64,000 nt of DNA from Myxococcales bacterium (GTDB lineage: Bacteria > UBA10199 > 2-02-FULL-44-16 > JAAZCA01): assembly GCA_012513515.1 (NCBI GenBank), contig JAAZCA010000014.1:1268-65267 (forward strand). Direction: 5' to 3'. Positions 3,523 to 24,494 of the stretch are shown in pieces (the first letter of the stretch is position 1; every line of letters begins with the position of its first letter). A program made the translations under genes and the position numbers. The notes beneath the pieces were generated by a model, which saw only the letters and a program-made list of their open reading frames with translations, searched no databases and was not told the origin of the DNA.

Positions 3523-3538
3523 TTCAACGGAGGAGCGC

Positions 3539-4270: not shown

Positions 4271-4346
4271 TTCTCGGGGGAATTGCCCGAAAGAGACCGC
4301 CGATTTTTGCCGGTTGTTCATCGAGGGTATAAAAACTGGGGGGAGA

Positions 4347-4721
4347 ATGATTATCGGAATCGGAATTGATCTGGTTGACGTAAGAAGGTTCGAATCTATC
4401 ATCTTCAGGTGGCGCGACAGGTTTCTAAAGAGGGTTTTTACCGACAAGGAAATCAAATACTGCAATACGAAGAAGCATCCTGCCCAGCGTTTTGCAGCCA
4501 GGTTCGCTGCGAAGCAGGCCTTCATCAAGGCCTTTTTCCCAAAGGGGCACAAGGGAATACGGATGCAGGATATCGAGATAGACCAGAAGGATTCGCGGCC
4601 GGTTATAAATCTTTACGGCATTGCAAAGGAGGCGGCCGATAAGGTCAAGGTCAGCGGCACTCACCTCATGCTTTCCCACGATGGCGATTATTGCATAGCC
4701 AATGTAGTTCTGGAATGGTGA
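4347..4721 (+). CDS. acpS: holo-[acyl-carrier-protein] synthase
   Basis: The MIIGIGIDLVDVRRFE N-terminus is an AcpS signature. The start is the internal ATG at 4347 preceded by GGGAGA, giving a length of about 125 aa. Confidence 0.88.
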   Translation: MIIGIGIDLVDVRRFESIIFRWRDRFLKRVFTDKEIKYCNTKKHPAQRFAARFAAKQAFIKAFFPKGHKGIRMQDIEIDQKDSRPVINLYGIAKEAADKVKVSGTHLMLSHDGDYCIANVVLEW

Positions 4722-4744
4722 TCGATTCTCATCGAGATTTTAAA

Positions 4745-6319
4745 ATGAAACTACTCTCCTCCTCACAGATGCGCTCGCTGGACGAAAGCGCTATAACCCA
4801 GCATCGGATTCCATCCATGGAACTCATGGAAAACGCTGGAAGGGCGCTCGCCGATGTAGCCGCAACCTCTCGTCCTTCCCGGGCAGCAGTCGTATGCGGC
4901 AGAGGGAATAACGGCGGTGATGGGCTCGTGGCTGCGAGGTATCTGATCGGCATGGGGATCGATGTAGCCGTCCTGATTCTGGCCTCGCCTCAGGAGCTCT
5001 CCCCCGACGCTAGGGCGAACTGGGAGAGGCTGGTGAGGATATCCACGAGGGTCTTCCCCTGTACGGATGCTTCGTATTTGAGCAGTCATGCCTCGATCTT
5101 GGCGGAGGCCGATCTCATCGTGGACGCTATTTTCGGAACAGGTCTCAGGGACGAAGTGAAGGGGATATCCCTTCATGCCATAGAGATGATCAACGCGATG
5201 AAGGGGCGAAAGTCGCGCGTGGTATCTGCCGATATCCCGTCGGGGCTTTCATCCGATACCGGCATGCCTCTGGGAGGATCCGTCGTTGCTGATGATACGG
5301 TTACATTTGCTCTGCCAAAACTCGGCCTTTGTCTCGGGAGGGGGTTGGAGTATTGCGGAAATATTCATGTCGTCGATATAGGTATTCCGCCGGAGGAGGC
5401 GGAGAAGATCCCTTCTAAATATTCTCTAATAGTCGGGGATGATGTGCGTCGTTCGTTTTTACCGAGAAGAATGAATTCCCATAAGGGGACCTTCGGACAT
5501 GTGGCGATATTCGCCGGATCGCGAGCCAAGATCGGAGCGGGGTATCTCTCCTCGAGGGCGGCGCTGAGAAGCGGTTCCGGCCTCGTCACCTATGCGATGC
5601 CGGAAAGCGCCTTCGCATTTTTCGATTCGAATTATTCTGAGGTGATGTGCGAACCTCTTCCCGATAACGGTAAGGCATTTTTTTGTCATGAATCGCTGGA
5701 TAAAGCGTTGCATCTTGCGCAGGACAAGAGCGCCGTCGCGATAGGTCCGGCGATCGGGACGGAGGAGGCGACGCGCGCTTTTCTCAACGCCTTTGTGAGG
5801 GATCTCAAAACCAGCTTGGTCATCGATGCCGACGGGCTGAACCTGCTCGATCTCTCTTCCCTCAGGATGAGGGGGGCGGCGACCGTTTTGACGCCGCATC
5901 CGGGGGAGATGGCCAGGCTCACCAAAAGCGATACCGGATTGGTCAATGCGAACAGGACGCAGGCGGCGATCTCTCTTGCGGCTTCCTGTGGGGCAATTGT
6001 GGTCCTCAAGGGGATGGGAACGGTAGTCGCTGCTCCCGATGGACGCTGTGCGATAAATCGAACCGGGAACTCAGGGATGGCATCGGCCGGAATGGGGGAC
6101 GCACTCACAGGGATCATCCTCTCCCTTCTCGGTCAGGGGCTGGACCCATTCGATGCGGCCTGCGCCGGAGTTTTCGTTCATGGAATGGCCGGCGACTTTG
6201 CCGCTTCGGAAATAGGAGAGCGCGCGCTGATAACTTCCGATTTGATAAAAAATCTTCCGCGTGTTTTTTCGAGCATCGAAACTCATAGTCATTCCCGCGG
6301 AATAGAACTGGATCCCTGA
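4745..6319 (+). CDS. nnr: bifunctional NAD(P)H-hydrate repair enzyme Nnr (epimerase/ADP-dependent dehydratase)
   Basis: It has an N-terminal YjeF_N domain (GRGNNGGDG) and a C-terminal carbohydrate-kinase-like domain (GPAIG, GMGD). The last ~12 codons and the stop codon are read through a repeat element. Confidence 0.88.
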   Translation: MKLLSSSQMRSLDESAITQHRIPSMELMENAGRALADVAATSRPSRAAVVCGRGNNGGDGLVAARYLIGMGIDVAVLILASPQELSPDARANWERLVRISTRVFPCTDASYLSSHASILAEADLIVDAIFGTGLRDEVKGISLHAIEMINAMKGRKSRVVSADIPSGLSSDTGMPLGGSVVADDTVTFALPKLGLCLGRGLEYCGNIHVVDIGIPPEEAEKIPSKYSLIVGDDVRRSFLPRRMNSHKGTFGHVAIFAGSRAKIGAGYLSSRAALRSGSGLVTYAMPESAFAFFDSNYSEVMCEPLPDNGKAFFCHESLDKALHLAQDKSAVAIGPAIGTEEATRAFLNAFVRDLKTSLVIDADGLNLLDLSSLRMRGAATVLTPHPGEMARLTKSDTGLVNANRTQAAISLAASCGAIVVLKGMGTVVAAPDGRCAINRTGNSGMASAGMGDALTGIILSLLGQGLDPFDAACAGVFVHGMAGDFAASEIGERALITSDLIKNLPRVFSSIETHSHSRGIELDP

Positions 6320-6411
6320 TAGAACCATTCGGGGATGACAATCATAGTGTCATTTCCGCGGTCTTAAGCCGCCGCTAACGCGGGGCAAACGGGAATCCCG
6401 TGGAATAGAAA
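6288..6411. repeat. composite intergenic repeat (modules GTCATTCCCGCGG / GGATCCC / CGGGGATGAC / AAGCCGCCGCTAACGCGGGG)
   Basis: It shares modules with at least 13 other loci in the window. It overlaps the 3' end of nnr. Confidence 0.8.
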
Positions 6412-6417
6412 TACAAG

Positions 6418-6864
6418 ATGATAAAACGAAAAACAAAATCTCCGGTAGAAACACAGGAATTTGCCGCCGAATTTTCGGCGCGTCTAAGGCCGGGGGACCT
6501 TGTCGCGCTCATCGGGGATCTTGGCGCAGGCAAGACCCATTTTGTCCAAGGGCTTGCAGCGGGTTTTTCCGTTCCGGAAAAAATCTACGTTCGCTCTCCT
6601 TCCTTTGCGTTGATAAACGAATATCTTGGCGGTCGCCTCCCTCTATACCATTTTGATTTTTACAGGCTTTCGGATCCCTCCGAAACAGAGGGGCTTGGAA
6701 TGGAGGAATACTTTTACGGTGAAGGGGTAACGGCTGTCGAATGGGCCGATCATTTTCCTGAACTCATCCCCGCGTCCGCGTATTGGGTGGAATTTAAAAT
6801 CCTCGGCGATAGGGAGAGGGAGATAACGATTACGGGAAAAGATGACGTCATTCCCTCGGAATAG
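6418..6864 (+). CDS. tsaE: tRNA threonylcarbamoyladenosine biosynthesis protein TsaE
   Basis: It has the P-loop GDLGAGKT in a YjeE-like fold of about 150 aa. The stop codon TAG lies inside a repeat element. Confidence 0.85.
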   Translation: MIKRKTKSPVETQEFAAEFSARLRPGDLVALIGDLGAGKTHFVQGLAAGFSVPEKIYVRSPSFALINEYLGGRLPLYHFDFYRLSDPSETEGLGMEEYFYGEGVTAVEWADHFPELIPASAYWVEFKILGDREREITITGKDDVIPSE

Positions 6865-6898
6865 AACTGGATCCCCGATTAAAGCACTCGGGGATGAC
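6847..6898. repeat. REP-like hairpin repeat (GTCATTCCCTCGGAATAGAACTGGATCCCCGAT...CACTCGGGGATGAC)
   Basis: It belongs to the same family and supplies the tsaE stop codon. Confidence 0.8.
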
Positions 6899-6921
6899 GA
6901 ACGCGTCGATAAGGAGGCACA

Positions 6922-8298
6922 ATGTACGATCTCGCTGTAATAGGGGCCGGGCCCGGCGGTTACGTCGCCGCGATTTCAGCGGCTAAACATGGCGCAAAGG
7001 TTTTGCTCATTGAGCGCGAACAAGTTGGCGGCGTATGCCTCAACAGGGGCTGCATACCGACCAAGGCTTATATAGCCTCAGCCCACGCTCTTCACGCCAT
7101 TCATAAATCCTCTGAATTCGGAATCGAACTCGCCGGAGCTGCGGCGATCAATTTCGCAAAAGCCAAGAGTCGCAAGGATGAAGTCGTCTCAACTCTTCGG
7201 GGCGGAATAGAGACCCTTCTCAAGGGAAACAAAATCGAGCTAGTCAGGGGAAGCGCAACCTTTGTGGATTCAGGGCTCAGGATCGGAGAGAGGGAGGTCG
7301 ATGCGAAAAATATCATCATCGCCACGGGATCCGATTGGATCGATCTTCCAGGGATAAAGCGCGATGGCGAAAAAATAGTAACCAGCGACGAAGTTCTCGA
7401 ATGGGACTCTCTCCCCAAAAGTTTGGCGATCATAGGTGGTGGAGTGGTCGGGTGTGAGTTCGCATGTATGCTTTCCGAAATGGGCGTCGCTGTGACCATA
7501 ATCGAAGCGACTCCCTCTATCCTGCCCCCCGTCGAGGCCGGCATATCGCGCCTGCTCGCGCGTTCGATGAAATCCCGTGGAATAGAAATCCTGACATCCA
7601 CCTTTGCCAACTCGGCATCTGTAACCGCCTCCGGCGTTTCGATATCCCTTTCAACCGGCAACTCCATAGAGGTTGAAAAAGTCATGGTGGCGGTCGGCAG
7701 GCGTCCTTTTGTCGAAGGGCTTTCGCTGGCATCGGCAGGAATCGAGACCGACGGGCGGGGCTATATCATCGTGGATGAAAATTTCATGACCAGGAGAAAG
7801 AATTGCTACGCTATCGGGGATGTCAAAGGGGGCTTCATGCTCGCGCATCAGGCCAGCGCGGAAGGGGAGGCGCTCTCGGAATATCTCTTTGGCGGCAGCG
7901 AAAGGCTTCGCGATATCGGTCCTATTCCAAAGCCGATCTTCACCTACCCGGAGGTAGCCTCCGTGGGATTGACTTCGGAAGAGTTGAAGCGCGACGGGAT
8001 AAAATTTTCAACCGGAAGATTTCCGTATGCTGCGTGTGGCAAGGCGCTTTGCGACGGCGAAACGGAAGGACAGGTCCTTGTTCATGGAGATGAAGACGAA
8101 AAAGTTCTCGGCGTTCATGCCTTCGGCGAAGGTGCGACGCTTATGATAGCGGAGGCCGCGCTTGCCATGAAGGCCGGGCTCTCCGTAAGACAGATAGCGC
8201 AGACTGTTCACTCTCATCCGACCATCTCCGAAACGCTTGCAGAGGCCGCAGCCGACGTGTATGGCAGCGCAGTGCATAAGATGGGGAGGAAATCGTAG
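6922..8298 (+). CDS. lpd: dihydrolipoyl dehydrogenase
   Basis: It has a GAGPGGY FAD site, the redox-active GGVCLNRGCIPTK motif and a C-terminal HSHPTISE interface motif. Confidence 0.88.
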   Translation: MYDLAVIGAGPGGYVAAISAAKHGAKVLLIEREQVGGVCLNRGCIPTKAYIASAHALHAIHKSSEFGIELAGAAAINFAKAKSRKDEVVSTLRGGIETLLKGNKIELVRGSATFVDSGLRIGEREVDAKNIIIATGSDWIDLPGIKRDGEKIVTSDEVLEWDSLPKSLAIIGGGVVGCEFACMLSEMGVAVTIIEATPSILPPVEAGISRLLARSMKSRGIEILTSTFANSASVTASGVSISLSTGNSIEVEKVMVAVGRRPFVEGLSLASAGIETDGRGYIIVDENFMTRRKNCYAIGDVKGGFMLAHQASAEGEALSEYLFGGSERLRDIGPIPKPIFTYPEVASVGLTSEELKRDGIKFSTGRFPYAACGKALCDGETEGQVLVHGDEDEKVLGVHAFGEGATLMIAEAALAMKAGLSVRQIAQTVHSHPTISETLAEAAADVYGSAVHKMGRKS

Positions 8299-8300
8299 AT

Positions 8301-8335
8301 GAACTGGATCCCCGATAAAAACGCTCGGGGATGAC
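8301..8335. repeat. REP-like repeat (GAACTGGATCCCCGATAAAAACGCTCGGGGATGAC)
   Basis: It belongs to the same family and lies immediately after the lpd stop. Confidence 0.75.
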
Positions 8336-8356
8336 ACACAGATTGGTCGGAGTAAA

Positions 8357-9574
8357 ATGAATATTATCGTTCAAAAATATGGCGGGACATCGGTGGCGGA
8401 TCTGGAAAAGATCCGCGCCATAGCCGGGCGAATCGCGAAACGCCGGGAGGATGGGGAGGGGATAGCGGTCGTCCTCTCCGCCATGGGGGATTCCACGGAT
8501 CAACTCGTCGGGATGGCAAATGAAATATCAAAGGCACCGGATCCTTGCGCGATGGATCTCCTGCTTGCCACCGGCGAGCAAATTTCAATAGCGCTGATGG
8601 CAATGACTCTAAAGGAGCTGGGAGTGCCATGCGAAACCTTCATGGGCTTCGAGGCAGGTTTTTCCACCAGCGGCGATCACTGCAAGGCGAGGATAAGAAG
8701 GGTGGACCCCTCCGCGGTCAAGGCATCCATCGAATCCGGCAAAGTTGCAATAGTCGCCGGTTTTCAGGGGATTTCGGAGTCGAATGAAATCACGACGATA
8801 GGAAGAGGGGGCTCGGATACCACCGCGGTAGCGCTTGCGGCGGCGCTGGGCGCGGGCCGCTGCGAAATTTACACCGATGTCGATGGCGTCTTCACCGCGG
8901 ATCCAAGCCTTTGCAAAGACGCAAAGCTTCTGGAAAAGAGCTCCTATGAAGAGATGATGGAACTCGCCGATGCCGGCGCCAAGGTTCTTCACAGCCGCTC
9001 TGTGGAGATAGCGGCGAAATACGGCGTGGTTCTGGAGGTTCGTTCCTCATCTACGGGAAGGCCCGGGACATCGCTAATCCCCGAAAGTGAAATTTCAGAG
9101 GGGAGTGTCATATCCGGGATATCTTGCAATCTAGATGAGGCGAAGGTCTCTATAAGGAAGGTTCCGGACAAAGTCGGAGTAACCGCGGCAATCTTCAAGC
9201 CGATTGCGAGGGCGGGGATAGATGTCGATCTCATCATCCAGACGGTTTCTGAGGAGGGCTTCACCGAGCTCAGCTTTACCGTCCCCAAGGAGGACCTTCG
9301 TCGCGCGATGACTCTGGCGGAGGTCGTCGCAAGGGAGGTCGATGCCGGCAAGGTAACCGCATCCGGCGATATCGCTAAAATCTCAATCGTCGGTTTGGGG
9401 ATGCGCAGCCATGCCGGGGTCGCACACAGGATGTTCGATGCGCTCGCGCGGGAGGGGATATCCATCCAGATGATTGGTACCTCCGAGATCAAGGTCTCGG
9501 TGGTCATCGATATGCGCCGCGCAGAGGATGCCGTGAAGATACTTCACCGTGAATTTGGATTGGCGGACCGTTGA
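8357..9574 (+). CDS. lysC: aspartate kinase
   Basis: It starts MNIIVQKYGGTSV, has an amino-acid kinase fold and two C-terminal ACT domains. Confidence 0.92.
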   Translation: MNIIVQKYGGTSVADLEKIRAIAGRIAKRREDGEGIAVVLSAMGDSTDQLVGMANEISKAPDPCAMDLLLATGEQISIALMAMTLKELGVPCETFMGFEAGFSTSGDHCKARIRRVDPSAVKASIESGKVAIVAGFQGISESNEITTIGRGGSDTTAVALAAALGAGRCEIYTDVDGVFTADPSLCKDAKLLEKSSYEEMMELADAGAKVLHSRSVEIAAKYGVVLEVRSSSTGRPGTSLIPESEISEGSVISGISCNLDEAKVSIRKVPDKVGVTAAIFKPIARAGIDVDLIIQTVSEEGFTELSFTVPKEDLRRAMTLAEVVAREVDAGKVTASGDIAKISIVGLGMRSHAGVAHRMFDALAREGISIQMIGTSEIKVSVVIDMRRAEDAVKILHREFGLADR

Positions 9575-9585
9575 CCTAAAAAACA

Positions 9586-9650
9586 GGTTGAGGCTGAGGT
9601 TAAGGTTAAGAAAAATCATTTTCGCTCAACCTTAACCTAAACCTTAACCT
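9586..9650. repeat. hairpin built from tandem hexamers (GGTTAA)n / (TTAACC)n downstream of lysC
   Basis: GGTTGAGGCTGAGGTTAAGGTTAAG ... CTCAACCTTAACCTAAACCTTAACC forms the hairpin and may act as a terminator. Confidence 0.7.
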
Positions 9651-9661
9651 TTCGAATTTTT

Positions 9662-9790
9662 CGGTCGATGGTCAAAAACCGTGCGATAATACGATAGTGC
9701 AATAGTGCGATAAAAGCATGTCATCCCCGAGTGATGAGAAGGTTGTCATCCCCGAGTGGTGTAGTCGGGGATCCAGCAATAAGCGTGACT
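9662..9790. repeat. composite intergenic repeat (GGTCGATGGTCAA, GTCATCCCCGAGTG x2, CGGGGATCC, GCGTGACTCG modules)
   Basis: It belongs to the same family. Confidence 0.75.
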
Positions 9791-9822
9791 CGATATAAAA
9801 ATAAAGATATATTAACTTGACT

Positions 9823-9850
9823 ATGCAGGTTGATATATATTAACCTGCAT
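9823..9850. promoter_or_regulatory. putative operator palindrome ATGCAGGTT-GATATATAT-TAACCTGCAT upstream of the HTH/Doc pair
   Basis: It has 9/10 matching arms around an AT-rich core resembling a -10 element, and it sits directly upstream of the Shine-Dalgarno and ATG of the HTH gene. Confidence 0.55.
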
Positions 9851-9862
9851 AAAGAGGTTAAT

Positions 9863-10117
9863 ATGACCATCAAAAACTTCGTGTCGACGACGGAAGCCGC
9901 TAAAATCCTCGGAATAAGCACGGTAGCTGTCTTTAAAAAAATCAAGAATGGTCAGCTTCCAGCGCAGAGGGTCGGTAGAAATTATCTGATCGACATAAAA
10001 AACCTCGGTCTTAAAGATTCCAAGCCCAATAAAAAAACAAAAAAGCTGATCAGCGAAGCGGTGAAACGCGCGGTTTCTGAATATGGAGAAGCGTTGAAAA
10101 AACTGGGGGAAGAGTAG
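9863..10117 (+). CDS. excisionase/MerR-type helix-turn-helix DNA-binding protein, putative antitoxin
   Basis: A Xis-family HTH (AAKILGISTVAVFKKIKNGQLPAQRVGRNYLI) is preceded by an AGAGG Shine-Dalgarno, with an operator-like palindrome at 9823..9850. Its stop overlaps the start of the downstream Doc gene. Confidence 0.75.
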   Translation: MTIKNFVSTTEAAKILGISTVAVFKKIKNGQLPAQRVGRNYLIDIKNLGLKDSKPNKKTKKLISEAVKRAVSEYGEALKKLGEE

Positions 10118-10536
10118 TGCATATACTTTCTCTTCAGGAAGTTCGCGATATAGCATTCGAGCTCGCCAGAGAGAGTATGGCATGGGACGAACCTATTCCG
10201 GATTTTGACACCCGATTTCCTAACGTCCTGGAAAGCTGTCTATCGGCACCTTTTCAAACCTTTGACAAAAAAAATCTTTACAAAGGGTTGCTCGAAAAGA
10301 GCGCAATACTTTTCTATCTCATGATAAAGAATCATCCCTTTGCAAATGGCAACAAACGCATAGCGGTTACAGCTCTGCTTGTTTTCTTGGCTCTAAATGG
10401 GAAATGGTTGGAGGTAAGCAATCAGGAACTGTATAATTTTGCGGTTTGGGTGGCAAGCAGCCCGCCGCAACTCATGAACGAAACCGCTGATGCTATAGAG
10501 GGTTTTCTGACAAAAAATATCGTCTGTTACAGTTGA
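10117..10536 (+). CDS. doc: Doc/Fic-family toxin (death-on-curing type)
   Basis: It carries the exact Doc motif HPFANGNKR (HxFx[DN]GNKR). It uses a GTG start overlapping the upstream stop (TAGTG). Confidence 0.85.
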   Translation: MHILSLQEVRDIAFELARESMAWDEPIPDFDTRFPNVLESCLSAPFQTFDKKNLYKGLLEKSAILFYLMIKNHPFANGNKRIAVTALLVFLALNGKWLEVSNQELYNFAVWVASSPPQLMNETADAIEGFLTKNIVCYS

Positions 10537-10544
10537 AGGACTGG

Positions 10545-10745
10545 CAAATTGACCATGGACCATAGTGCGATAAAAGCCTGTCATCCCCGAGTGATTTTAT
10601 CGGGGATCCCGTAACGACCGTGACTGGTGGAAAAACAGAGGCTAGAGGTGAGATGTTAGAAACTAGAAAAAAACGGGCTCGTAAAAATCTCGTTTCTCAC
10701 TTCTAGATTCTAGCTTCTTGATGTCGGTCGATGGTCAATTGTCGG
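10545..10745. repeat. composite intergenic repeat plus CTAGA-type tandem-repeat hairpin (10630..10720)
   Basis: It carries the modules TTGACCATGGACCA, GTCATCCCCGAGTG, CGGGGATCCCG, CGACCGTGACTGGTG and GGTCGATGGTCAATTG. A hairpin GGCTAGAGGTGAGA...TCTCACTTCTAGATTCTAGC lies inside it. Confidence 0.75.
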
Positions 10746-10981
10746 GTTTAGGATGCATATCCCTGAAAAGAGCTGTTGGCATATTCGTTCAGATATTGTT
10801 AGAATGGGCGCCATCATTATTTAAGATTCGGGGTCCCTTTTATGCGTCAGAAAACGGATGCGCGCCTTATCATAACGAGAATGCCTGTTTCGATTTTTTC
10901 GCGTAATCACTTGAAATTATTCATTATTAGCTAAATCGGCTTTGGCATATAGGTTGCAACGTTATACGCCTGGAGGTTCTT

Positions 10982-13900
10982 ATGAAGAAAATAACCATAC
11001 TAATTCTTTCCGTGATCGCGATCGCCGCGGCCTATCCGCTTTTCGCCGCACAGGATTTTGGGTTTTCCGATCCGATACCGGTCGTCGGGGATAACCCAAA
11101 TGATCCAGGCGGGACGAGTGCTGTGAGGATGTATTTTTTCAATCATCCGGCATACACGGGGGACTCTAACTTCTCATCCTCATATGAGATCGATAAAAAA
11201 GTGAGCGATGTGATTGCAGTTCCGGGATCTGTTAGGATTGGAGAGCCTACTGCTATCTATTTACCCGCTTTTGGCTATGATAAGTCAAATATGCCGAAGT
11301 TAAAATCAACTTTAGGTTTAGGGCCTAGGAATTTGACTCTAAAGTTTGCTGAAGATAAGGAAATTACGCGTTATTTAGTGATGAGACCCTCCACCAAACC
11401 TAACCGACATGGAAGGTCAGTAGTGCTTGCAGATATCAGAAAAACGAAGTCAGGCGAATACCAATCACTTTCACTCGGAAATGACCGCCAATATATCGGC
11501 TATGCAGGCAACTATATTGCCCCATACTTGAGCGCTTCAGGGAAGAGCGATCATCCGGCATTATTTAAAAGTGCCAGCTCTGCTTACTTCAAATGGTGTT
11601 CCAGATCCAATAACATGGGTATCTACTTCGAATGTGCCGAAGAGGATACAATAGAAGAGATAGATGATATATTAGCGTACGACCTGGTTCCGCCTGTTGA
11701 TGCCTCTTTGATGATAACCCCCGTTTTTGATCCATTGCAGATACATGTGGGCGGTACAACTGCTGAACGTGGGTACTTGCTGAAAAACGGCCAAAGCACC
11801 AAGGGTTTTTATGCACTGAACGCAGCTACTACGGGTGCAGAACAACGAAAAGGCGAATTTAGAAAAGGCGAATTTAACTTTGCCTTAATTTCTCCTCTAA
11901 GTTTCTTTTACAAAGGCAACTACGACAAATATCGTTTTTTGGGGTACTCAAGTCTTCAGGACTACGTGATAGACATGACAGCGTTTCCTGAGAACAACTC
12001 ATCACTAGGGGGACTTAATCCAGAAGATTGGTTCGACTTACTCTATAAAAAGGTTGACGAACCTAAGGACTTTAGCTCAATTTTTATGTTGTATTCTTTA
12101 GGTTTAATAAATCTTCCCTATGCCACAGCTAACACTGTTTCGTCCGAGACACGTACCGCAGAATCACTACAGACGATCAGCGATATAATAGCGCCTGCCT
12201 ACATCACCAACCCATGGTTTCCGGTGGCGGCCAACCCTGTGGCAGTTGTCAGGGATTCTAGCCAGGATGTAGCTACCCTTTATTACAACACACTCTTTAG
12301 TTGGAATGATTTTTTGCTTACCCCTTATGGGCGTCCGACAATTTTCAAGGACATGGATGTTCACAGAATGAAGGAACTCGTCGGTTTTAAAAAAACAGAC
12401 GGATCCTTTACTTCTCTGGAAGACTGGTCTGGATATGAGTTCTTTTATCCGAGCAAGGTGGTAGTGCCGGTGGTGATATGGGGAGTCGGTGATGTAGATA
12501 TTGCGCAGTATGAGACATCCAATCCATCTTCGATAATTACGCCGAAAACGGTAGCTCTCGTGGATTATGGCGCCTCCAGCCACCCTGGAATTTTCAATAT
12601 GGCACATTTGCAGGACAGATCAAGAATTCCTAAAGACTATCTTCTTCTTCCCTCATCCATCGCTAACAATCGTGGCTTTGCCGGCATGATATACGTCATC
12701 GATAAAAATGACACGGAAAGCCAGCTTCATATGAAGAGTTGGAAATGGACCGAAGAACTAGGAAATGCTGACGATGTCAGAAAACGATTCGCCCTAAGGC
12801 CAAGAGAAGAAATATATACGGAAATTCCGTTCAGGGTTCCTTCCAAGGCTATTATGATTCCTCCCTATGATGGAGATCCAAACGTGGTCCCTTATCAACT
12901 TGCCACGGGAAACCTTGATGGAGATTCCTGTCAGGATATCGTGGTAAGTTATCGAAGCGCCGAGATGGTAACAGATATCCCAACTAAAAATTACACTGAC
13001 TTTCACGTATCCTATCCAAACCTGTTCAGCATCATATTCAGGAGCCCGCTCAAAGATGGTAGCTGCCCATTTTCCACTAGTGATAAATATTGGGATCCTG
13101 ATGGCATTACTGTTGTTCACAAAACTTTGCCGATTTTGGGTGGGAATACGGCCGGCAATGCCGCTGTTTCAGCGGTTTCAATAGGCAATTTCGTGGGAGA
13201 ACTTGGAAATAAAAAAAGAAACGATATAGCCGTCGGAAACCTAAATCTCGAGAAGGACGCCGATGGCAATTTTGCCGGCTTTGTCTACGTCTTTGCGAAT
13301 TCGGAAGATGACATTGATCGTACAACCGGAAAGCCGATCTTTAGTTCGCCAAACACAGGATATGACCCAACTACGGGCATTGGCGCCATCAGAATTAAGG
13401 CCGGTTTTAAATCTCATCCCGATAGCACAGATAAGTGGGGCGTGGGTTATTTGACGACTGACAGCGTTAGTGTTGAAGAATACGACAACATAGGTGCCAT
13501 AAGCGGACTTCCGCTGATCCTCCCATCCCTGGCATGTCCAGTAAGCGGCAGCGATACAACCAGGGCAGTTAGCGTCCATGAAGGAATGCTCGCCACCCTA
13601 TATGCGAGAATGAGTGAAAGCATAGGATGTGATGAGATAATATCAGCTAACGAAAATAATTTAAACCAAAGCTCATGCATGGACTCCACTCATAAAATGG
13701 AATACCCTTTTCAAAAATTCGGCATGCCATTGCCTCAGCGCTGTGCGCCCAGAGAAGGGGTATGTGGAGCTGGTCTTGTTGAAGAAGCAACTAATTACAA
13801 ACTTCCGTTGTGGAGTGATATAGATTGCCCAACCCAATGCTCAAAATGGGAAAATCTATGCTTACTTAGCCAGATGGACCAAAATCTTACGTCATCTTCA

Positions 13901-16285
13901 GAACCTTATATGGGGCTTGGCGGAAATTTTTGTATGGTAAGAGATGACATTCATGGCCAACCTCTTAATCCAATGGCTTACCTTTGTATGCAGCAGCTAA
14001 ATGCTGTGCGCGAGCCGGTGAATAAGCAAGACAGCTTTGCGTATTTAACCGACTTAGGCGGCATTGCCGATGGATCGCAGACGGAAAATGCATTCTATTA
14101 TTTTGCGCCACTATTTCCGCCCGATGAAGAAACAAGTCTTAGTGTATATTCTACACTTTTTACTGGAAATAATCGCTATGCGCCAATTACGTTTATGGAC
14201 AATTTGGTCAATGCGAGCAATGCTTGGACGTTCTATCTGCCATCTACGGCAAGTGCCCAGTATAATCCCACTTACCCAGAGCGTGTGCAACCGTTCCCAA
14301 GTGGCGCAGCCGGATGTTCCCTCTTACCTCCTTCTCAGCAGAACGTAGTCAGCCAGGATAGAGAGATGTCCGTGCCATTTGCATATGATTTTCTCGATCC
14401 AAAGATGCCGCTGGAGGATAACCCCCTGTTCAATAAAATAAGCCCTCCGAGCGGCTCTCAGGCCGAGACAACCTACTATCCCTCGACTATAGATTATAAA
14501 AAAATCCCCCTTATAAAGGGGCGTGAGATGCCGGGACCTAGGGAGATGACCGTGATACTGGGGGCCGCTGCGCCATGCGGCAATGGATCTGTAGATGTGT
14601 ATCTTGGCGAGCAATGCGATCCTATTGCTGACGACCCAAGTTCCTCATGTAAGAGCTTGGGATTTGGAGATTCGAGCTCATGCAATGCAAATTGCATGTG
14701 TAGCGGATGTGGTGATGGTACGGTGGATTCGAATGCGGGAGAGGAATGCGATCTGGGTTCAGAGAATTTTTCAGATACCGATCGTGACGGATGTCGAACC
14801 GGATGCAAGTTGCACTCATGCGGTGATGAAGTGGTTGATTCCGACGAGCAGTGCGAAGGAAATCAGACGCAGGAAGGGTCACACTGCGATCCTGACAAAT
14901 GCCAGTGGGTTTCAAATACCTGCGGAGATGGGATCTTTTCACAGGACGCGACTTACAGCGAAGAATGTGATTACTCAGCCGGTGAAGAGGGCGCCTGCAA
15001 AACTGCTGGTTTTGAATGTAGCCAAAGTTGCATATGTGAACCTATTTGCGGCGACAATATCGTAGCAGGCGCTGAGGTTTGCGATGGTACCGCCGGCTGT
15101 CAGTCAGGATACACCTGTAACGAAGAATGCAGCGTATGCGAAAAGGTGCCGGTCTGCGGCGATGGAACTGTCGACCCCGGGGAAACCTGCGGAGAGCTGG
15201 GGCTTTCATGTGCTGAAGGTTTTGAATGCATCGCCCAAGGGCAACCTAATGCCTGCACATGTACGCCGGTGCCGGACTCGTTTTCATCCGACTGCGAGGT
15301 GAAGTGCGTAAGCTTCGCAGACGAAGCGGAGAAGCTCTATTACGATTCACTTAACGAGACCTATTTCCGCGCTCCATCGGGAAGAAAGGACGATTTCTTC
15401 TGCCCGAACAACTCCGTCATCCAGATGTCCTGCCTTGTCGCAGATGCTGCATTCAACGGATCCGTCGGCCCTTGGATGATGGTCCAGAGCAAGGGAATGG
15501 TGCTGCATGACATGGCCAAGATCACATCATCGGATTTTCCGTTCGATGTCGTAGCCCCGCAGAGCCCGATTCGAATCGCTCCTCTCGCATCCTCCGCGAG
15601 CTCCGGCGGAAAAGCCGCTGCGGTCGTCCTCCCGAACCTGGCCTCGATTCGAGGGAATCTGGAGTTTTCAACCAGCGGAGTCTCGCCGATGGCGGCGACA
15701 TCTGTGATGGAAAGCACGGCCGGCATAATGACGATCAACAACATGATAGAGCATCGTGCAGTCGCTCTAATGCCTTCGAGTTCAAAATCGCAGTCGAGGG
15801 ATGCTGGCAAGGCTGCTGCGGCCCCTGCCGTACATTACACGAGGCTTCGGGCCTATCCGGAACCGACCCACACTACGATAGAGAGCTGGCCGAAGGATCT
15901 CGATCCTGAGAAGCTCTATGTCGAGAATCGGCTGAAACCGGATTATGTCAGGAGCATAATTGAAACTCGTAAAAAGGAAGGGGCAAAGGGAACCCGCGAT
16001 ATCGCCCTGGGAATTTCTGACGATGTCGGCATATACGAGATGTCGATATTGCAGGAGACCTATGGTGAAAAGAGCAGCGGCACTACGGCGGTCAACTATT
16101 CATTCTATGCTGGGCCCGTATCTTCGATCTCCGAAGGGGGCGCAGGATGCGGAAAGTGCTCGATATCCGAGAATTCTGGCTTCAATGCCAGGGCCGCCAC
16201 ACCTATATTGCTGGCAGTGCTGTTGTCGGCACTCGCCCTTGGCGCAGTAAGGGTGAGGGTTAGCGTGAGGTCGAAAAGGAAGTAG
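10982..16285 (+). CDS. giant secreted/cell-surface protein (1767 aa) with FG-GAP-like repeats, Myxococcus-type CGDG cysteine-rich repeats and a C-terminal sorting-like anchor
   Basis: It has a GGAGG Shine-Dalgarno and an N-terminal signal peptide (MKKITILILSVIAIAAAYPLFAAQ). Five CGDG...EECD repeats fall at residues ~1230-1400, FG-GAP-like segments (GNFVGELGNKKRNDIAVGNLN) are present, and the protein ends GAGCGKCS...PILLAVLLSALALGAVRVRVSVRSKRK. A terminator hairpin follows at 16309..16357. Confidence 0.85.
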   Translation: MKKITILILSVIAIAAAYPLFAAQDFGFSDPIPVVGDNPNDPGGTSAVRMYFFNHPAYTGDSNFSSSYEIDKKVSDVIAVPGSVRIGEPTAIYLPAFGYDKSNMPKLKSTLGLGPRNLTLKFAEDKEITRYLVMRPSTKPNRHGRSVVLADIRKTKSGEYQSLSLGNDRQYIGYAGNYIAPYLSASGKSDHPALFKSASSAYFKWCSRSNNMGIYFECAEEDTIEEIDDILAYDLVPPVDASLMITPVFDPLQIHVGGTTAERGYLLKNGQSTKGFYALNAATTGAEQRKGEFRKGEFNFALISPLSFFYKGNYDKYRFLGYSSLQDYVIDMTAFPENNSSLGGLNPEDWFDLLYKKVDEPKDFSSIFMLYSLGLINLPYATANTVSSETRTAESLQTISDIIAPAYITNPWFPVAANPVAVVRDSSQDVATLYYNTLFSWNDFLLTPYGRPTIFKDMDVHRMKELVGFKKTDGSFTSLEDWSGYEFFYPSKVVVPVVIWGVGDVDIAQYETSNPSSIITPKTVALVDYGASSHPGIFNMAHLQDRSRIPKDYLLLPSSIANNRGFAGMIYVIDKNDTESQLHMKSWKWTEELGNADDVRKRFALRPREEIYTEIPFRVPSKAIMIPPYDGDPNVVPYQLATGNLDGDSCQDIVVSYRSAEMVTDIPTKNYTDFHVSYPNLFSIIFRSPLKDGSCPFSTSDKYWDPDGITVVHKTLPILGGNTAGNAAVSAVSIGNFVGELGNKKRNDIAVGNLNLEKDADGNFAGFVYVFANSEDDIDRTTGKPIFSSPNTGYDPTTGIGAIRIKAGFKSHPDSTDKWGVGYLTTDSVSVEEYDNIGAISGLPLILPSLACPVSGSDTTRAVSVHEGMLATLYARMSESIGCDEIISANENNLNQSSCMDSTHKMEYPFQKFGMPLPQRCAPREGVCGAGLVEEATNYKLPLWSDIDCPTQCSKWENLCLLSQMDQNLTSSSEPYMGLGGNFCMVRDDIHGQPLNPMAYLCMQQLNAVREPVNKQDSFAYLTDLGGIADGSQTENAFYYFAPLFPPDEETSLSVYSTLFTGNNRYAPITFMDNLVNASNAWTFYLPSTASAQYNPTYPERVQPFPSGAAGCSLLPPSQQNVVSQDREMSVPFAYDFLDPKMPLEDNPLFNKISPPSGSQAETTYYPSTIDYKKIPLIKGREMPGPREMTVILGAAAPCGNGSVDVYLGEQCDPIADDPSSSCKSLGFGDSSSCNANCMCSGCGDGTVDSNAGEECDLGSENFSDTDRDGCRTGCKLHSCGDEVVDSDEQCEGNQTQEGSHCDPDKCQWVSNTCGDGIFSQDATYSEECDYSAGEEGACKTAGFECSQSCICEPICGDNIVAGAEVCDGTAGCQSGYTCNEECSVCEKVPVCGDGTVDPGETCGELGLSCAEGFECIAQGQPNACTCTPVPDSFSSDCEVKCVSFADEAEKLYYDSLNETYFRAPSGRKDDFFCPNNSVIQMSCLVADAAFNGSVGPWMMVQSKGMVLHDMAKITSSDFPFDVVAPQSPIRIAPLASSASSGGKAAAVVLPNLASIRGNLEFSTSGVSPMAATSVMESTAGIMTINNMIEHRAVALMPSSSKSQSRDAGKAAAAPAVHYTRLRAYPEPTHTTIESWPKDLDPEKLYVENRLKPDYVRSIIETRKKEGAKGTRDIALGISDDVGIYEMSILQETYGEKSSGTTAVNYSFYAGPVSSISEGGAGCGKCSISENSGFNARAATPILLAVLLSALALGAVRVRVSVRSKRK

Positions 16286-16308
16286 GGCGTTAAAATAGAA
16301 GTATCTTC

Positions 16309-16357
16309 TTCGGGGGAGATGTAATCGCTTCGTGCGGCCGTGTCCCCCGAGTTTTTT
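16309..16357 (+). terminator. rho-independent terminator after the giant gene
   Basis: CTTCGGGGGAG ... TGTCCCCCGAG forms a stem followed by TTTTTT. Confidence 0.7.
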
Positions 16358-16372
16358 CAGGCATTCTTAAAA

Positions 16373-16560
16373 TCGACCATGGACAATTGGCCTCTGTTTT
16401 TTCCAGTCACGGCTGTTGCTGGAGGGGGTCGAATCCTGATCGCTGATCCCTGATCTTTGATCAGCATTTTGTAAGATTAGCTTATATTCGAAAACATCCT
16501 TATTAAGATTAAGATCAGGATCAAGATTAAGATGAAGATTAAGATTAAGAGGAAGATTAA
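16373..16560. repeat. composite repeat: CGACCATGGACAATTGGCC module + ~105-bp MITE-like element (copy A) + (AAGATT)n hexamer tract
   Basis: The 105-bp core is nearly identical to 17343..17447, with 2 mismatches. Confidence 0.8.
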
Positions 16561-16911
16561 TCAAAATATCGGATTAAATTTTTTCATATTGATGATCATA
16601 GCATAAGCCCTGCGAAGCAGCGTTTTTAGTTCTTCCTGATACTTGGCGGATATATATCCATAAGCCGATAGGATATCGATGATCGAGGCGACCTCGGCTA
16701 TTGAGCCTGGGGAGATATCGAAAAACCGATTTCTGTCTTTTTGGGACTTTCTGCCATTTCCTTCCGCTAAGTTAAGCAGGGTGCTGGAAAGGGCTCGTTT
16801 AAGCTGATCCTCCAGATAGTAATTTCCCCTTGGAAGAGATCCTATTAGCTCTGGCATTCTTTTTGCGACCGAAAGCAAAAGTCCGTAGCAGTTAAGCCGC
16901 TGATGATTCAT
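16561..16911 (-). CDS. four-helix-bundle protein (TIGR02436-like, '23S rRNA intervening-sequence protein' family)
   Basis: It is 116 aa and starts MNHQRLNCYGLLLSVAKRMPELIG...NLAEGNGR. A GGAGG Shine-Dalgarno precedes it, and a paralog is encoded divergently. Confidence 0.8.
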   Translation of the reverse strand: MNHQRLNCYGLLLSVAKRMPELIGSLPRGNYYLEDQLKRALSSTLLNLAEGNGRKSQKDRNRFFDISPGSIAEVASIIDILSAYGYISAKYQEELKTLLRRAYAMIINMKKFNPIF

Positions 16912-16926
16912 TTAAAACCTCCTCCT

Positions 16927-16984
16927 TGTGATTTTAATTTCAAAACCTCCCGACCGGCTGAGAGGTTTTGAAATTAAAATCACA
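16927..16984. promoter_or_regulatory. perfect 23-bp inverted repeat (TGTGATTTTAATTTCAAAACCTC - 12 nt - GAGGTTTTGAAATTAAAATCACA) between the divergent four-helix-bundle genes
   Basis: Both arms were read directly from the sequence. The element sits between the two Shine-Dalgarno sequences. Confidence 0.8.
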
Positions 16985-16996
16985 GATGGAGGGGTT

Positions 16997-17332
16997 ATGT
17001 TCGGACATCAGCGGCTTTACTGCTACAATCTTTGCCTTGGGGTGGCAAAAAGGATGCCAGAGCTAATCGGATCATGGCCATCGGGGTCAGGATATCTCGT
17101 GGATCAGCTTAAACGGGCCCTTTCGAGCGTTATACTGAATATCGCTGAAGGAAATGGTAGAAAGTCGATAAAGGAGAGAAGACGGTTTTTCGATATCGCG
17201 ATAGGTTCTGCTGCCGAAGTATCCTCTATCTTCGATGTCGCCAGAGCTTATGGATATATCACCGAGCCAGTCTATGAGGAGCTTCAGTCGGAGCTGCTTC
17301 AGGTGGTGAGGATGCTATACAAGCTGAAGTAA
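16997..17332 (+). CDS. four-helix-bundle protein (TIGR02436-like), paralog of 16561..16911
   Basis: MFGHQRLYCYNLCLGVAKRMPELIG...NIAEGNGR is roughly 60% identical to its neighbour by eye. A GGAGGGG Shine-Dalgarno precedes it. The ORF-track start at 16928 lies inside the palindrome, so the start was reset to the ATG at 16997. Confidence 0.8.
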   Translation: MFGHQRLYCYNLCLGVAKRMPELIGSWPSGSGYLVDQLKRALSSVILNIAEGNGRKSIKERRRFFDIAIGSAAEVSSIFDVARAYGYITEPVYEELQSELLQVVRMLYKLK

Positions 17333-17337
17333 TCCTC

Positions 17338-17552
17338 GAATCCTGATCCCTAATCCCTGATCTTTGATCAGCATTTTGTAAGATTAGCTTATATTCGAAA
17401 ACATCCTTATTAAGATTAAGATCAGGATCAAGATTAAGATTCGGGGATGACACCATGAATGTCATTCCCGCATGCTGTAAGCCGCCGCTAACGCGGGGCA
17501 AACGGGAATCCCTTGCCAATCGTTCAGCAGTTACGAGTCACCAGTCACAGCT
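17338..17552. repeat. composite repeat: ~105-bp MITE-like element (copy B) + CGGGGATGAC / GTCATTCCCGC / AAGCCGCCGCTAACGCGGGG / CACCAGTCAC modules
   Basis: It is a direct repeat of 16426..16530. Confidence 0.8.
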
Positions 17553-17643
17553 TTTTACCCAATAATCTCTTGTAATCATTGACTTCTTTCTTTTTCTCAA
17601 TAAGATCACCGCAAATTCAAGAAGTTAAAGCGGGGGAGGAAAA

Positions 17644-18966
17644 ATGGCGAAAGTACGAGTCGTGTTGGTTCTTGCAGTGGCGGTTTTTGCGGCCGTCCTC
17701 TTTATCTCAAAAGCGGTCGAAGCGGGACACAGCCCGGATGTGGTGACCTTCAACCCGGTCACGGATGGCGGAAAGTACAACGTCATCCACCAGTCGAAAA
17801 CCTTGCCACAGTGGGGATTCAACGTCGGAATGACCTTCGATTATGCCTACGAGCCGTATGAAAAAGCCACCGCCGCCGGAACGAGGATAATCGGGATAGT
17901 TGACGACCTCATGATGACCAACGTCCACGGGGCTATCGGCTGGACCGACTGGTGGTCGATGGGCGCAAATCTTCCTGTCGCGATTTGGCAAACCTGGTTT
18001 GATCCAAACCTTCCCATTGCCACCGTGCAAAAGGAGAACAAATACGGAAAACTCGGCGATGCGCGCCTCGAGATGAAATTTCGCCTTCTCGACATCGAAA
18101 GACACCACGTCGGCTTGGCGCTGGTTCCCTATATGTATTTTCCAACCGGACATTGGCAGACCTATCTCGGCAACGATATGTGGAGCCCCGGCGGAACTCT
18201 GGTTTTCGATGCCGATATAAAGAACCGCGTCTTTCTCTCTCTGAACGTCGGTTACAGGATGTATAAATATGTCCGTTACGATACGACAAACCCGAATGCG
18301 TTTCTTGATGACACCCTCAGCATGGGGGGAGGGATAAATGTCAGAATCAATGACACCTGGGCAATCACCGGTGAGGCATGGAGCGAGTCAGTCATAAAAT
18401 CCCTCTTCAAGAACCAGCTTCAGAATCCCTCGGAGTTTTTGGTCGGGACCAAAATCACTCCGCAAGGTGCGGCGAAGGGGTTGGGAATCACAGTCGGCGG
18501 AGGAAGGGCGATCACTACCGGCATAGGCGATCCTGATTTTCGCGTCCTGGTCGGCGTAAACTATCGCTACGATCGTGAGCCGCCGCCGCCGCCGCCAGTT
18601 GAAGTTGAAGCAGCGGTAGAAGAAAAGATCATCATCACCCAGAAGATTCACTTCGAGTTCAACAAGGCCGTCATAAGGCCAGTTTCTTATCCAATTCTCG
18701 ACGATGTCGTGATGTTGCTGCAGCAGAATCCGCAGCTGGGGCTTATCCGTGTTGAAGGCCACACCGACTGGATCGGGAACGATGCCTACAACCAGCGGCT
18801 GTCGGAAAAGAGGGCGAACTCCGTCCGCGAGTATCTGATCAGCAAGGGGATAGAGCCGTACAGGCTTCAGGCTGTCGGATATGGCGAGTCCAGGCCGATC
18901 GCCGACAACAATACCACAAAGGGGCGCGCCCGCAATAGGCGAACGGAATTTACGGTCGTGCAGTAA
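17644..18966 (+). CDS. OmpA-family outer-membrane protein (N-terminal beta-barrel, poly-Pro linker, C-terminal OmpA peptidoglycan-binding domain)
   Basis: It has a signal peptide, a PPPPPPVEVEAAVEE linker and a C-terminal OmpA_C domain (NQRLSEKRANSVREYL ... NRRTEFTVV). Confidence 0.85.
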   Translation: MAKVRVVLVLAVAVFAAVLFISKAVEAGHSPDVVTFNPVTDGGKYNVIHQSKTLPQWGFNVGMTFDYAYEPYEKATAAGTRIIGIVDDLMMTNVHGAIGWTDWWSMGANLPVAIWQTWFDPNLPIATVQKENKYGKLGDARLEMKFRLLDIERHHVGLALVPYMYFPTGHWQTYLGNDMWSPGGTLVFDADIKNRVFLSLNVGYRMYKYVRYDTTNPNAFLDDTLSMGGGINVRINDTWAITGEAWSESVIKSLFKNQLQNPSEFLVGTKITPQGAAKGLGITVGGGRAITTGIGDPDFRVLVGVNYRYDREPPPPPPVEVEAAVEEKIIITQKIHFEFNKAVIRPVSYPILDDVVMLLQQNPQLGLIRVEGHTDWIGNDAYNQRLSEKRANSVREYLISKGIEPYRLQAVGYGESRPIADNNTTKGRARNRRTEFTVVQ

Positions 18967-18987
18967 ATTTCAAGAAGCAAACTAACT

Positions 18988-19136
18988 TCGACCATGGACA
19001 ATTGACCTCTGTTTTTCCCAGTCACGCTTGTTACGGGATCCCCGATAGAACCATTCGGGGATGACGACCTTTTCGACACTCGGGGATGACAATCACGCCG
19101 TCATTCCCGCGGTTTTAAGCCGCCGCTAACGCGGGG
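18988..19136. repeat. composite intergenic repeat (CGACCATGGACAATTGACCTCTGTTTTTCCCAGTCACG + GGGATCCCCGAT + CGGGGATGAC x2 + GTCATTCCCGCGG + AAGCCGCCGCTAACGCGGGG)
   Basis: It belongs to the same family. Confidence 0.8.
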
Positions 19137-21335: not shown

Positions 21336-21450
21336 AGCCGTGACTCGTAACTGGTGAACGGTTGGAACCCCGCGGTAGCGGCGGCTTAATGCCGCGGGAA
21401 TGACATTCATAGTGTCATCCCCGAATGACGAGAAGGTCGTCATCCCCAGT
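21336..21450. repeat. composite intergenic repeat (inverted orientation of the CCGCGG/GTCATTCCC/GTCATCCCC modules)
   Basis: AGCCGTGACTCGTAACTGGTGAACGG ... CCCCGCGGTAGCGGCGGCTTAATGCCGCGGGAATGAC ... GTCATCCCC x2. Confidence 0.78.
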
Positions 21451-24480: not shown

Positions 24481-24494
24481 CAGCCTCTTCACCA

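Follow-up and report, generated by a model that had tools for sequence, protein, structure and literature searches.

How some 8 kb of accessory-looking DNA came to lie among housekeeping genes is the question raised by this locus. The stretch that we analysed, 9580-17640, belongs to a 64,000-nt piece of DNA that carries the NCBI label Myxococcales bacterium (the window, to which all coordinates refer), and lies between the aspartate kinase gene lysC and a gene for an OmpA-family protein (ompA-like; ompA for short). It contains a toxin–antitoxin (TA) pair, a giant gene for a 1767-aa protein, two four-helix-bundle (4HB) genes and many repeats. A reading made from the letters alone, hereafter the sequence-only reading, had taken it for a single insertion of ~8 kb. 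Comparison with relatives and with other strains gives a different answer. The interval is very probably a conserved chromosomal slot for a hypervariable surface-protein gene, the spacers of which have gathered repeats like repetitive extragenic palindromes (REPs), the TA pair and a 4HB module that resembles the intervening sequences (IVSs) of 23S rRNA genes. Of the 8 kb, 5.3 kb are ancestral to the clade.

Profile matches bear out the gene content read from the sequence alone (lysC, a helix-turn-helix (HTH)-Doc pair, the 1767-aa protein, two divergent TIGR02436 genes, ompA and recG):

8357..9574, + strand: lysC (aspartate kinase), left housekeeping flank; NF005155, 530 bits against a cutoff of 346
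9863..10117, + strand: HTH_17/excisionase-type gene, 84 aa, candidate antitoxin; PF12728, 28.6 bits, and TIGR01764, 34.1 bits
10117..10536, + strand: Doc-family (Fic fold) toxin gene, 139 aa; TIGR01550, 62.6 bits against 38.65
10982..16285, + strand: giant gene, 1767-aa protein with a signal peptide
16561..16911, - strand: 4HBa, TIGR02436/PF05635, 116 aa; PF05635, 67.5 bits against 33.8, and TIGR02436, 64 bits against 24
16997..17332, + strand: 4HBb, TIGR02436/PF05635, 111 aa; PF05635, 78.9 bits against 33.8, and TIGR02436, 78.1 bits against 24
17644..18966, + strand: OmpA-family gene, distant TraB homolog, right flank; PF00691, 86 bits
19193..21334: recG

Relatives were found by lysC-anchored scans of a genome collection and of metagenomes, followed by tblastn with the window proteins, and the giant orthologs were reached via the lysC-anchored loci. 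Three relatives with lysC 65-66% identical to that of the window (L012, L093 and L095) share the order yjeF-tsaE-lpd-lysC-giant ortholog-ompA-recG, in which the ortholog is an open reading frame (ORF) of 1,611-1,761 aa; in L093 and L095, lipA and an SRPBCC gene continue beyond recG. A fourth (L013, lysC also 65-66% identical) has lysC, a 1,788-aa ortholog and ompA, and a fifth (L172, ompA 76%) has the 3′ end of the giant gene, 230 bp of spacer and then ompA, recG and lipA. The orthologs are collinear with the window protein, similar in length and dotted throughout with invariant residues. At 24-27%, their identity to it is far below the 65-77% of the neighbouring lysC, ompA and recG, which points to fast evolution of the giant gene. 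The spacers on either side of the ortholog in L012 and L093 are only 179-297 bp long and free of hairpins and of HTH, Doc and 4HB genes. L013 and L095 likewise have neither the TA pair nor the 4HB genes at the locus, and the giant-ompA spacer of L172 is without 4HB genes.

These arrangements imply that the giant gene is ancestral at its position in the clade and that the 8-kb segment is not one insertion. The sequence-only reading had proposed to ask whether lysC directly adjoins ompA/recG elsewhere; in the relatives the two are separated by a giant ortholog, which refutes the single insertion. What the relatives lack at this locus is the TA and 4HB parts alone; the giant gene is present in all five. 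It would thus have stood between lysC and ompA-like/recG since the common ancestor of the clade. One contig that had seemed to be a far closer relative (L160, lysC 97%) was discarded as chimeric.

Base composition had seemed to mark the segment as foreign. Along the window, GC content drops at 9.5 kb, from 0.57 to 0.42-0.47, is back at 0.52-0.56 near 14.5 kb and shows a second dip at 16.5-17.5 kb. The AT-richer codon usage ascribed to the giant gene is real, but confined to its 5′ two thirds, where GC at third codon positions (GC3) is 0.44, against 0.57 over the 3′ third; lysC and ompA have 0.65-0.66. The same deviation recurs in the N-terminal parts of the orthologs relative to their own flanks (GC3 of 0.69 versus 0.77-0.80 in L012; GC of 0.55-0.59 versus 0.65 in L093 and 0.41-0.45 versus 0.54 in L013), and within the species this part has a GC content of 0.45-0.47 in all alleles. 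Low GC is therefore probably intrinsic to the gene rather than a sign of recent import.

Strain comparisons reveal where the variability of the locus resides. The contigs compared encode LysC, Doc or 4HBb proteins identical to those of the window and stem from numerous independent assemblies (ENA, JGI, NCBI and Logan); gene order is uniform in all of them. Strain DNA is 92-100% identical to the window up to 11149 and again from 14819, and between these points alignment fails; the two breakpoints are common to seven other assemblies. The giant gene accordingly falls into three parts:

10982..11149, + strand: conserved 5′ end (signal peptide and first 56 aa)
11150..14818, + strand: hypervariable allelic cassette (aa 57-1279), low GC
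14819..16285, + strand: conserved 3′ third

The conserved 5′ end has 92-96% nucleotide identity in all strains, with every alignment stopping at 11149, and the 3′ third is 95.3% identical to that of JAKPQK010000048.1 and of L181. Strain L002 illustrates the abruptness of the change: it matches the window at 100% from acpS to lpd and at 98.9-99.8% over lysC and the TA pair, and its cassette is only ~57% identical in DNA and 43% in protein. At least 4-5 cassette alleles circulate, 41-91% identical in protein:

Allele A: window, L001 and L004; the reference
Allele B: L002 and L003; 43% protein identity to A
Allele B′: L193, L196 and L181; 79% to B
Allele B″: L191; 91% to B
Allele C: JAKPQK010000048.1 (1736 aa) and L192; 41-53% to A and 60-70% to B

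Between allele A and either B or C, synonymous sites have reached saturation (proportion of synonymous differences, pS, ~0.8), compared with synonymous divergence (dS) of 0.44-0.53 for lysC and ompA among the same lineages (lysC, 0.44). The ratio of nonsynonymous to synonymous divergence (dN/dS) amounts to 0.32-0.47 for the cassette and 0.34 for the conserved 3′ third, as opposed to 0.05-0.06 in lysC, ompA and doc. Identity between strains is mosaic beyond the segment as well. Over window positions 1-11149, L002 shows 90% identity in FtsH, 83.5% in FolP, 97.7% in GlmM, 96.4% in PdxJ and 100% from acpS through lpd, which indicates frequent homologous recombination, with divergent donors.

These observations are best read as an exposed, fast-evolving part of a surface protein, of which old alleles are swapped by recombination in the conserved ends of the gene. 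The 3.7-kb cassette would move between strains through homologous recombination in the 5′ end and the 3′ third, and such exchange may keep several very old alleles in circulation. The N-terminal 1,200 residues would be exposed and under relaxed or diversifying selection, and selection probably does act on this exposed part. The check proposed with the sequence-only reading, whether the segment is polymorphic between metagenome-assembled strains, comes out positive for the N-terminal 3.7 kb, which behave as replaceable DNA; the process would be allelic exchange, not insertion. The locus is a candidate strain marker for an uncultured group, in which it may also determine recognition or act as a phage receptor, and its exact breakpoints at 11149 and 14819 let allele frequencies be read from metagenomes.

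Two of the assemblies compared have peculiarities of their own. In L191 (ERZ2648087 NODE_1506, 4866-8420), gene calling splits the giant gene into four ORFs (334, 279, 134 and 759 aa), lpd is truncated and contig coverage is ~5x, so that this is either a pseudogenised allele or an assembly error. The bin GCA_029973575.1 (L178 and L008) combines a lysC contig with 90% DNA identity to the window and an ompA-recG contig with 99%; it would be a mixture of strains or else a recombinant genome.

The architecture of the giant protein suggests a secreted, surface-anchored molecule. It begins with a Sec-type signal peptide, and its conserved 3′ third encodes Cys-rich repeats (CGDG..D..E.CD) and a C-terminal domain. 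It ends in a Cys motif, a transmembrane helix and a basic tail (GCGKC...LLAVLLSALALGAV RVRVSVRSKRK), for which the ortholog consensus is GCGC...RVRRRxRK. Pfam, NCBIfam and PADLOC scans of the whole protein, its halves, the orthologs and allele B gave nothing above cutoff (DUF4215 reached 22.3 bits, under its cutoff of 27, and FG-GAP-like motifs in the orthologs were weak and likewise sub-cutoff), and a profile of six orthologs had no match in PDB. MYXO-CTERM tags direct lipid-anchored surface display in Myxococcota (PMC11980579). The end of the giant protein has the same tripartite organization of Cys motif, hydrophobic helix and Arg/Lys-rich tail, and by analogy we infer that the protein is probably displayed on the surface, exported by its signal peptide and anchored by this MYXO-CTERM-like tag. 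It differs from recognized tags in score: on TIGR03901 the L093 ortholog reaches only 17.3 bits against a cutoff of 20, and the window tail, in which the tripartite pattern is visible, gives no hit.

The next gene along invites a more specific reading. On the TraB model NF033763, the OmpA-family protein scores 172 bits; its N-terminal 320 aa alone match model positions 13-291 (E 4.8e-18) and its OmpA domain (residues 326-439) matches positions 385-498. Judged by these matches, it is a distant TraB homolog over both domains. In the outer-membrane exchange of myxobacteria, TraA is a polymorphic receptor and TraB its partner (PMC3325183, PMC6372800), and the giant protein and the TraB homolog could form a comparable pair, in which the variable N-terminal part would confer strain-specific cell–cell recognition and the TraB-like protein would be the outer-membrane partner. 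The parallel with TraA of Myxococcus xanthus covers secretion, a polymorphic N-terminal part, Cys-rich repeats and a terminal Cys/helix/basic tag (PMC3325183, PMC6372800), there are many alleles within one population, and the organism is labelled Myxococcales. We nevertheless regard such a pair as unlikely. At 1767 aa the giant protein far exceeds the ~700 aa of TraA, and neither a PA14 domain nor TIGR04201 repeats appeared in the Pfam and NCBIfam scans. The TraB score is far under the cutoff of 700. The traA and traB genes overlap, whereas here the two genes are 1.36 kb apart (179-297 bp in relatives) with a terminator-like hairpin and T-run 3′ of the giant gene (16308..16356, + strand, CGGGGGAGA...TCCCCCGAG TTTTTT, detected by folding and conserved in L173). 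The ompA-like gene, 66-76% identical in relatives, always adjoins recG, even in relatives that have no giant gene; its link to recG predates that to the giant gene, and it behaves as a housekeeping envelope protein. Finally, pressure from phages or predators is another explanation for hypervariable surface proteins.

We return to the slot with gathered cargo, and to the cargo itself. The TA pair lies in the lysC-giant spacer, where the HTH stop codon overlaps the Doc start by 1 nt and a palindromic, operator-like sequence (9826-9851) precedes the HTH gene. The Doc protein has the motif HPFANGNKR, which fits HxFx[DN][AG]NKR. The pair resembles Phd-Doc in having a Doc with an intact catalytic motif, a small overlapping DNA-binding gene before it and a palindrome upstream. 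It differs in that the partner is of the HTH_17/excisionase type rather than a Phd/YefM antitoxin; its overlap and small size fit a candidate antitoxin. Around the pair lie direct copies of a REP-like composite and, in addition, two hairpins:

9589..9650: hairpin H1, 6-nt-period arms (GAGGCT GAGGTT AAGGTT AAG ...), 17-nt loop, no ORF
9702..9794: REP-like composite, left direct repeat of the TA module (families D7, D8 and D11)
10562..10629: REP-like composite, right direct repeat of the TA module, 97% identical to 9702-9735
10637..10720: hairpin H2, long stem, periodic purine-rich/pyrimidine-rich arms, no ORF

Both hairpins are unique in the window (H1, -31.8 kcal/mol, z -6.0; H2, -33.7 kcal/mol, z -3.3). 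Beyond them, the 237 bp directly upstream of the giant gene contain a promoter-like site (10776-10805) and match the ancestral spacer in length.

The TA module with its repeats (~9575-10745) is absent from all relatives at ≤76% identity and present in every close lineage, including L178 and L180. Relative to the window, these two are 87-90% identical in the DNA of lpd and lysC, 99.6-100% in the lysC-HTH spacer and 96-100% in the TA genes, and H1 is 100% identical in L178 although lysC there is only 90%. We considered and rejected this near-identity as proof of mobility, since the population is mosaic elsewhere too (FolP, 83.5%, versus AcpS-Lpd, 100%); because of this general mosaicism it is best read as a recombination tract.

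The repeats that surround the cargo are of two kinds. One would be a species-specific REP-like family present in many spacers, with cargo or none; the other would be long hexamer-periodic hairpins of the same kind of stem as is found around 4HB genes elsewhere, with an ORF (H3, described below) or without (H1 and H2). The REP-like element is a 30-33-nt imperfect palindrome, GGATCCCCGA-loop-TCGGGGATGAC, which is extragenic, occurs in both orientations and is clustered into composites along with conserved linker modules (GACCATGGACAATTGACC and CAGTCACGGCTGTTAC). Its core TCGGGGATGAC occurs 17 times in the window against 1.3 expected, a 13-fold excess. Modules lie in the yjeF/tsaE, tsaE/lpd, lpd/lysC, ompA/recG, recG/AAA_14 and AAA_14/lipA spacers and at 24.5, 30.7 and 39.5 kb, and copies related to 10562..10629 are found at 6867-6898, 8306-8336, 19006-19065, 23068-23113, 24497-24547 and 30753-30813.

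The family varies between strains. A 25-nt tandem unit (9720-9744, 9745-9769) is double in the window, L001 and L004 and single in L002, L003, L005, L178 and L180; the lpd-lysC copy (8299-8356) is absent from L178 and L180, in which that spacer is 7 bp long. More distant relatives (lysC identity ≤70%) have no REP core at their loci. By sequence, the elements fit the type of REPs and bacterial interspersed mosaic elements, with which they share species specificity, extragenic position, palindromic form, both orientations and strain-variable presence and copy number. They differ in their conserved linkers and in that no gene for a REP-associated tyrosine transposase (RAYT) is among those called on the contigs within ~10 kb of the segment. 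As a separate observation, relatives have palindromic families of their own in the corresponding spacers, such as CCTCCCCTTTGTAAGGGGAGG and GTCATTCCCGAGTGTCTTAATCGGGAATCC in L175 (1-740), and repeats in L013 (4935-5678) give spurious peptides such as AISVITRFAWDCHVALRA.

The sequence-only reading had placed the same composite modules at 9586..9790, 10545..10745, 16373..16560 and 17338..17552. Repeats are present in all four intervals, but they are not one module: H1 and H2 are unique, H3 has two copies, these three hairpins are unrelated in sequence, and only the REP-like parts recur. Nor are they specific to the segment, since the same REP-like modules lie between housekeeping genes and elsewhere in the window.

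The 4HB module, in the giant-ompA spacer, is organized symmetrically, in the order H3, 4HBa (- strand), palindrome, 4HBb (+ strand), H3, and lies within an interrupted REP-like unit:

16368..16425: left half of an interrupted REP-like composite; aligns with the intact 18983-19065, 24481-24570, 30730-30812 and L173
16429..16533: hairpin H3, copy 1, 105 nt, hexamer-periodic arms, just 3′ of the 4HBa end
16920..16992: perfect palindrome, ~29-bp arms, between the divergent 4HB starts; fold -45.9 kcal/mol, z -8.6
17336..17440: hairpin H3, copy 2, 98% identical to copy 1
17441..17549: right half of the interrupted composite and further REP modules; 100% match to 24536-24571 and 6365-6399

The two 4HB proteins are 62% identical. 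Each stop codon is directly followed by a pyrimidine-rich hexamer-periodic arm, and over the whole module the outer arm of one H3 copy pairs with that of the other (-33.7 kcal/mol, z -5.8). A sister site without the module exists in L173, a contig of the same lineage as L180 with ompA 89% and the 3′ end of the giant gene 96.6% identical in DNA. There the giant-ompA spacer measures 308 bp and is free of 4HB genes; 139 bp of REP-like sequence replace window 16359-17551. Both L173 and window 24481-24570 have the composite unit (CCAGTCACGGCTGTTACNGGATCCCCGA-loop-TCGGGGATGAC-...-GTCATTCCCGCATG) intact, whereas alignment shows it interrupted in the giant-ompA spacer of the window by ~1,015 bp (16425-17440).

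Stems of this kind are not peculiar to the locus. We examined seven plasmid TIGR02436 genes (L200-L206, from Nostoc, Pseudanabaena, Geminocystis, Calothrix, Azospirillum and Stanieria), and six of the seven (Nostoc, Geminocystis, Stanieria, Pseudanabaena, Azospirillum) have a purine-rich repeat with a period of 6-7 nt on the upstream side and the complementary repeat on the downstream side, as in (GGGAGTA)n and (TCCCTAC)n, with duplex z of -2.8 to -11. On Pseudanabaena galeata pPg_01 (L201, 326-2490), the four-helix-bundle gene stands between cas6 and cas4. Complementary flanks alone were rejected as a signature of 4HB genes. The flanks of recG (18983-19136 and 21340-21447) are an inverted REP composite, and 100 nt of each pair at -103 kcal/mol (z -10.6), so that complementary flanks also arise from REP clusters in this genome.

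IVSs of 23S rRNA genes that encode S23p are regarded as selfish elements (PMC4990558). The 4HB module resembles them, as known for example from Coxiella burnetii (PMC4990558), in the protein family, in complementary borders able to form a long stem, in GC content below that of the surroundings and in sporadic occurrence among close relatives. It differs in its position in a spacer between protein-coding genes instead of within rRNA, in comprising two divergent paralogs around a palindrome, and in having a complete hairpin, not a single arm, at each end. On this likeness, H1-H3 are probably IVS-like stems, with (H3) or without (H1 and H2) a 4HB gene. The periodic complementary repeats around TIGR02436 genes, together with the empty sister site, offer a handle on the question of selfish stem-bounded cassettes.

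A bolder combination would join this likeness to the TraAB parallel: the giant protein and the TraB homolog would be a larger, PA14-less analogue of TraAB, and H1-H3 would be mobile IVS-like 4HB cassettes, some bearing an ORF and others ORF-less. We consider both halves holding together as improbable as the TraA/TraB-like pair by itself. If it were true, IVS-like 4HB cassettes would seed intergenic repeats far outside rRNA genes.

Taken together, the distributions suggest a probable order of events. The HTH-Doc pair and its repeats may have entered the lysC-giant spacer in the ancestor of the close lineages, and the 1-kb palindromic 4HB module would have entered the giant-ompA spacer later, inside a REP-like unit. 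That the repeats served as scaffolds for insertion, as had been supposed, finds limited support: the 4HB module splits a REP unit that is intact elsewhere and the TA pair sits between direct REP composites. This support is weakened in that the same repeats fill spacers free of cargo, and exact copies of Doc (in 23 contigs) and of 4HBb (in 12) were found only at this locus.

Several observations weigh against our interpretation as an old slot with later cargo. L092, the closest lysC relative at 70%, has an unrelated 1324-aa TSP3-repeat protein after lysC, and both the giant gene and ompA are replaced there. The deeper relatives L207 (ompA 57%) and L208 (ompA 48%) keep ompA-recG with other genes upstream and no giant gene, which suggests that the giant gene itself was acquired or moved at an older date. 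The variable part of the protein was assigned no structure or domain in the Pfam/NCBIfam/PADLOC and PDB profile searches, and the C-terminal tag of the window protein reaches no NCBIfam threshold. Raised dN/dS cannot tell relaxed constraint from positive selection, and L173 may have lost its 4HB genes by deletion, instead of the window lineage having gained them by insertion. The TSP3-repeat protein of L092 had itself been considered as a giant ortholog and was rejected because it is not homologous to the giant protein. The region after lysC in that relative (5812-12099) also encodes a 381-aa unrelated protein and a Y1 (IS200/RAYT-like) transposase.

That the whole of 9580-17640 is one horizontally acquired accessory island, with the family repeats as its scaffolds, has become very improbable. 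GC dips over most of the interval, the cargo looks accessory, repeats lie at all junctions, and upstream of ompA a giant gene is missing in the deep relatives L207 and L208. These points are outweighed by the same position of the giant gene in five relatives with neighbours 65-76% identical and no TA or 4HB genes, by the recurrence of low GC in orthologs, by the different ages of the components (the TA pair is shared with the L178/L180 lineages and the 4HB module is absent from L173) and by repeats that sit between core genes too. As the sequence-only reading had noticed, there is no integrase or transposase, and also no tRNA gene, among the genes checked within ~10 kb on either side of the segment; the sole tRNA of the window is at 47.6 kb, and the repeats at the boundaries are generic REP units rather than attachment (att) sites. 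A GC dip, accessory-looking genes and flanking repeats can thus mimic an island; here they mark an old, position-stable locus with allele-by-allele exchange.

Slightly less probable still is the proposal that the TA, 4HB and AAA_14 genes (the last beyond recG) are integron-type cassettes with attC-like hairpins and no integrase, as in clusters of attC sites lacking integrases. The genes are indeed small and self-contained, include a TA pair and each stand beside an imperfect hairpin of 60-105 nt. With no integrase within ~10 kb, core genes between the modules instead of an array, no RYYYAAC or GTTRRRY cores at the hairpin ends on inspection, hairpins unrelated in sequence and a TA pair with its own promoter-like and operator-like region, the locus does not resemble such a cluster. 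Least credible is diversification in place by a diversity-generating retroelement (DGR), with the 4HB proteins as Avd-like factors: PF05635 proteins are related to Avd (PMC10053308) and one relative has RVT_1 and bAvd genes ~10 kb away, but the window contains no reverse transcriptase and no template/variable repeat pair, the divergence spans 3.7 kb with many indels and synonymous saturation, unlike adenine-specific tracts of ~100 bp, and L173 has no 4HB genes altogether.

Just outside the interval, between recG and lipA, lies a third small insertion of the same style as the TA and 4HB modules. This is an AAA_14/DUF4143 ATPase gene of 486 aa (21573-23033; GC 0.34, GC3 0.31), with a match to PDC-S01, a candidate family of PADLOC. 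REP modules and a perfect 29-nt direct repeat (21340-21368 and 23122-23150) flank the gene, which is absent from the recG-lipA spacer in L093, L095, L172, L175 and L207.

Other features were seen farther afield. Rfam matched no RNA family in the region, and the window contains no rRNA. In L175, a VapB-PIN pair (6419-7014) lies between the SRPBCC gene and the squalene-hopene cyclase gene, and a JGI 3300072015 contig carrying P0007 has RVT_1 and bAvd (a DGR) beyond the squalene-hopene cyclase gene. L207 encodes a HEPN/nucleotidyltransferase pair (1590-2296). In the window itself, a tandem repeat of 18-nt period at 41270-41413 consists of six TTCTTCTTTGCTACTTTT-like units.

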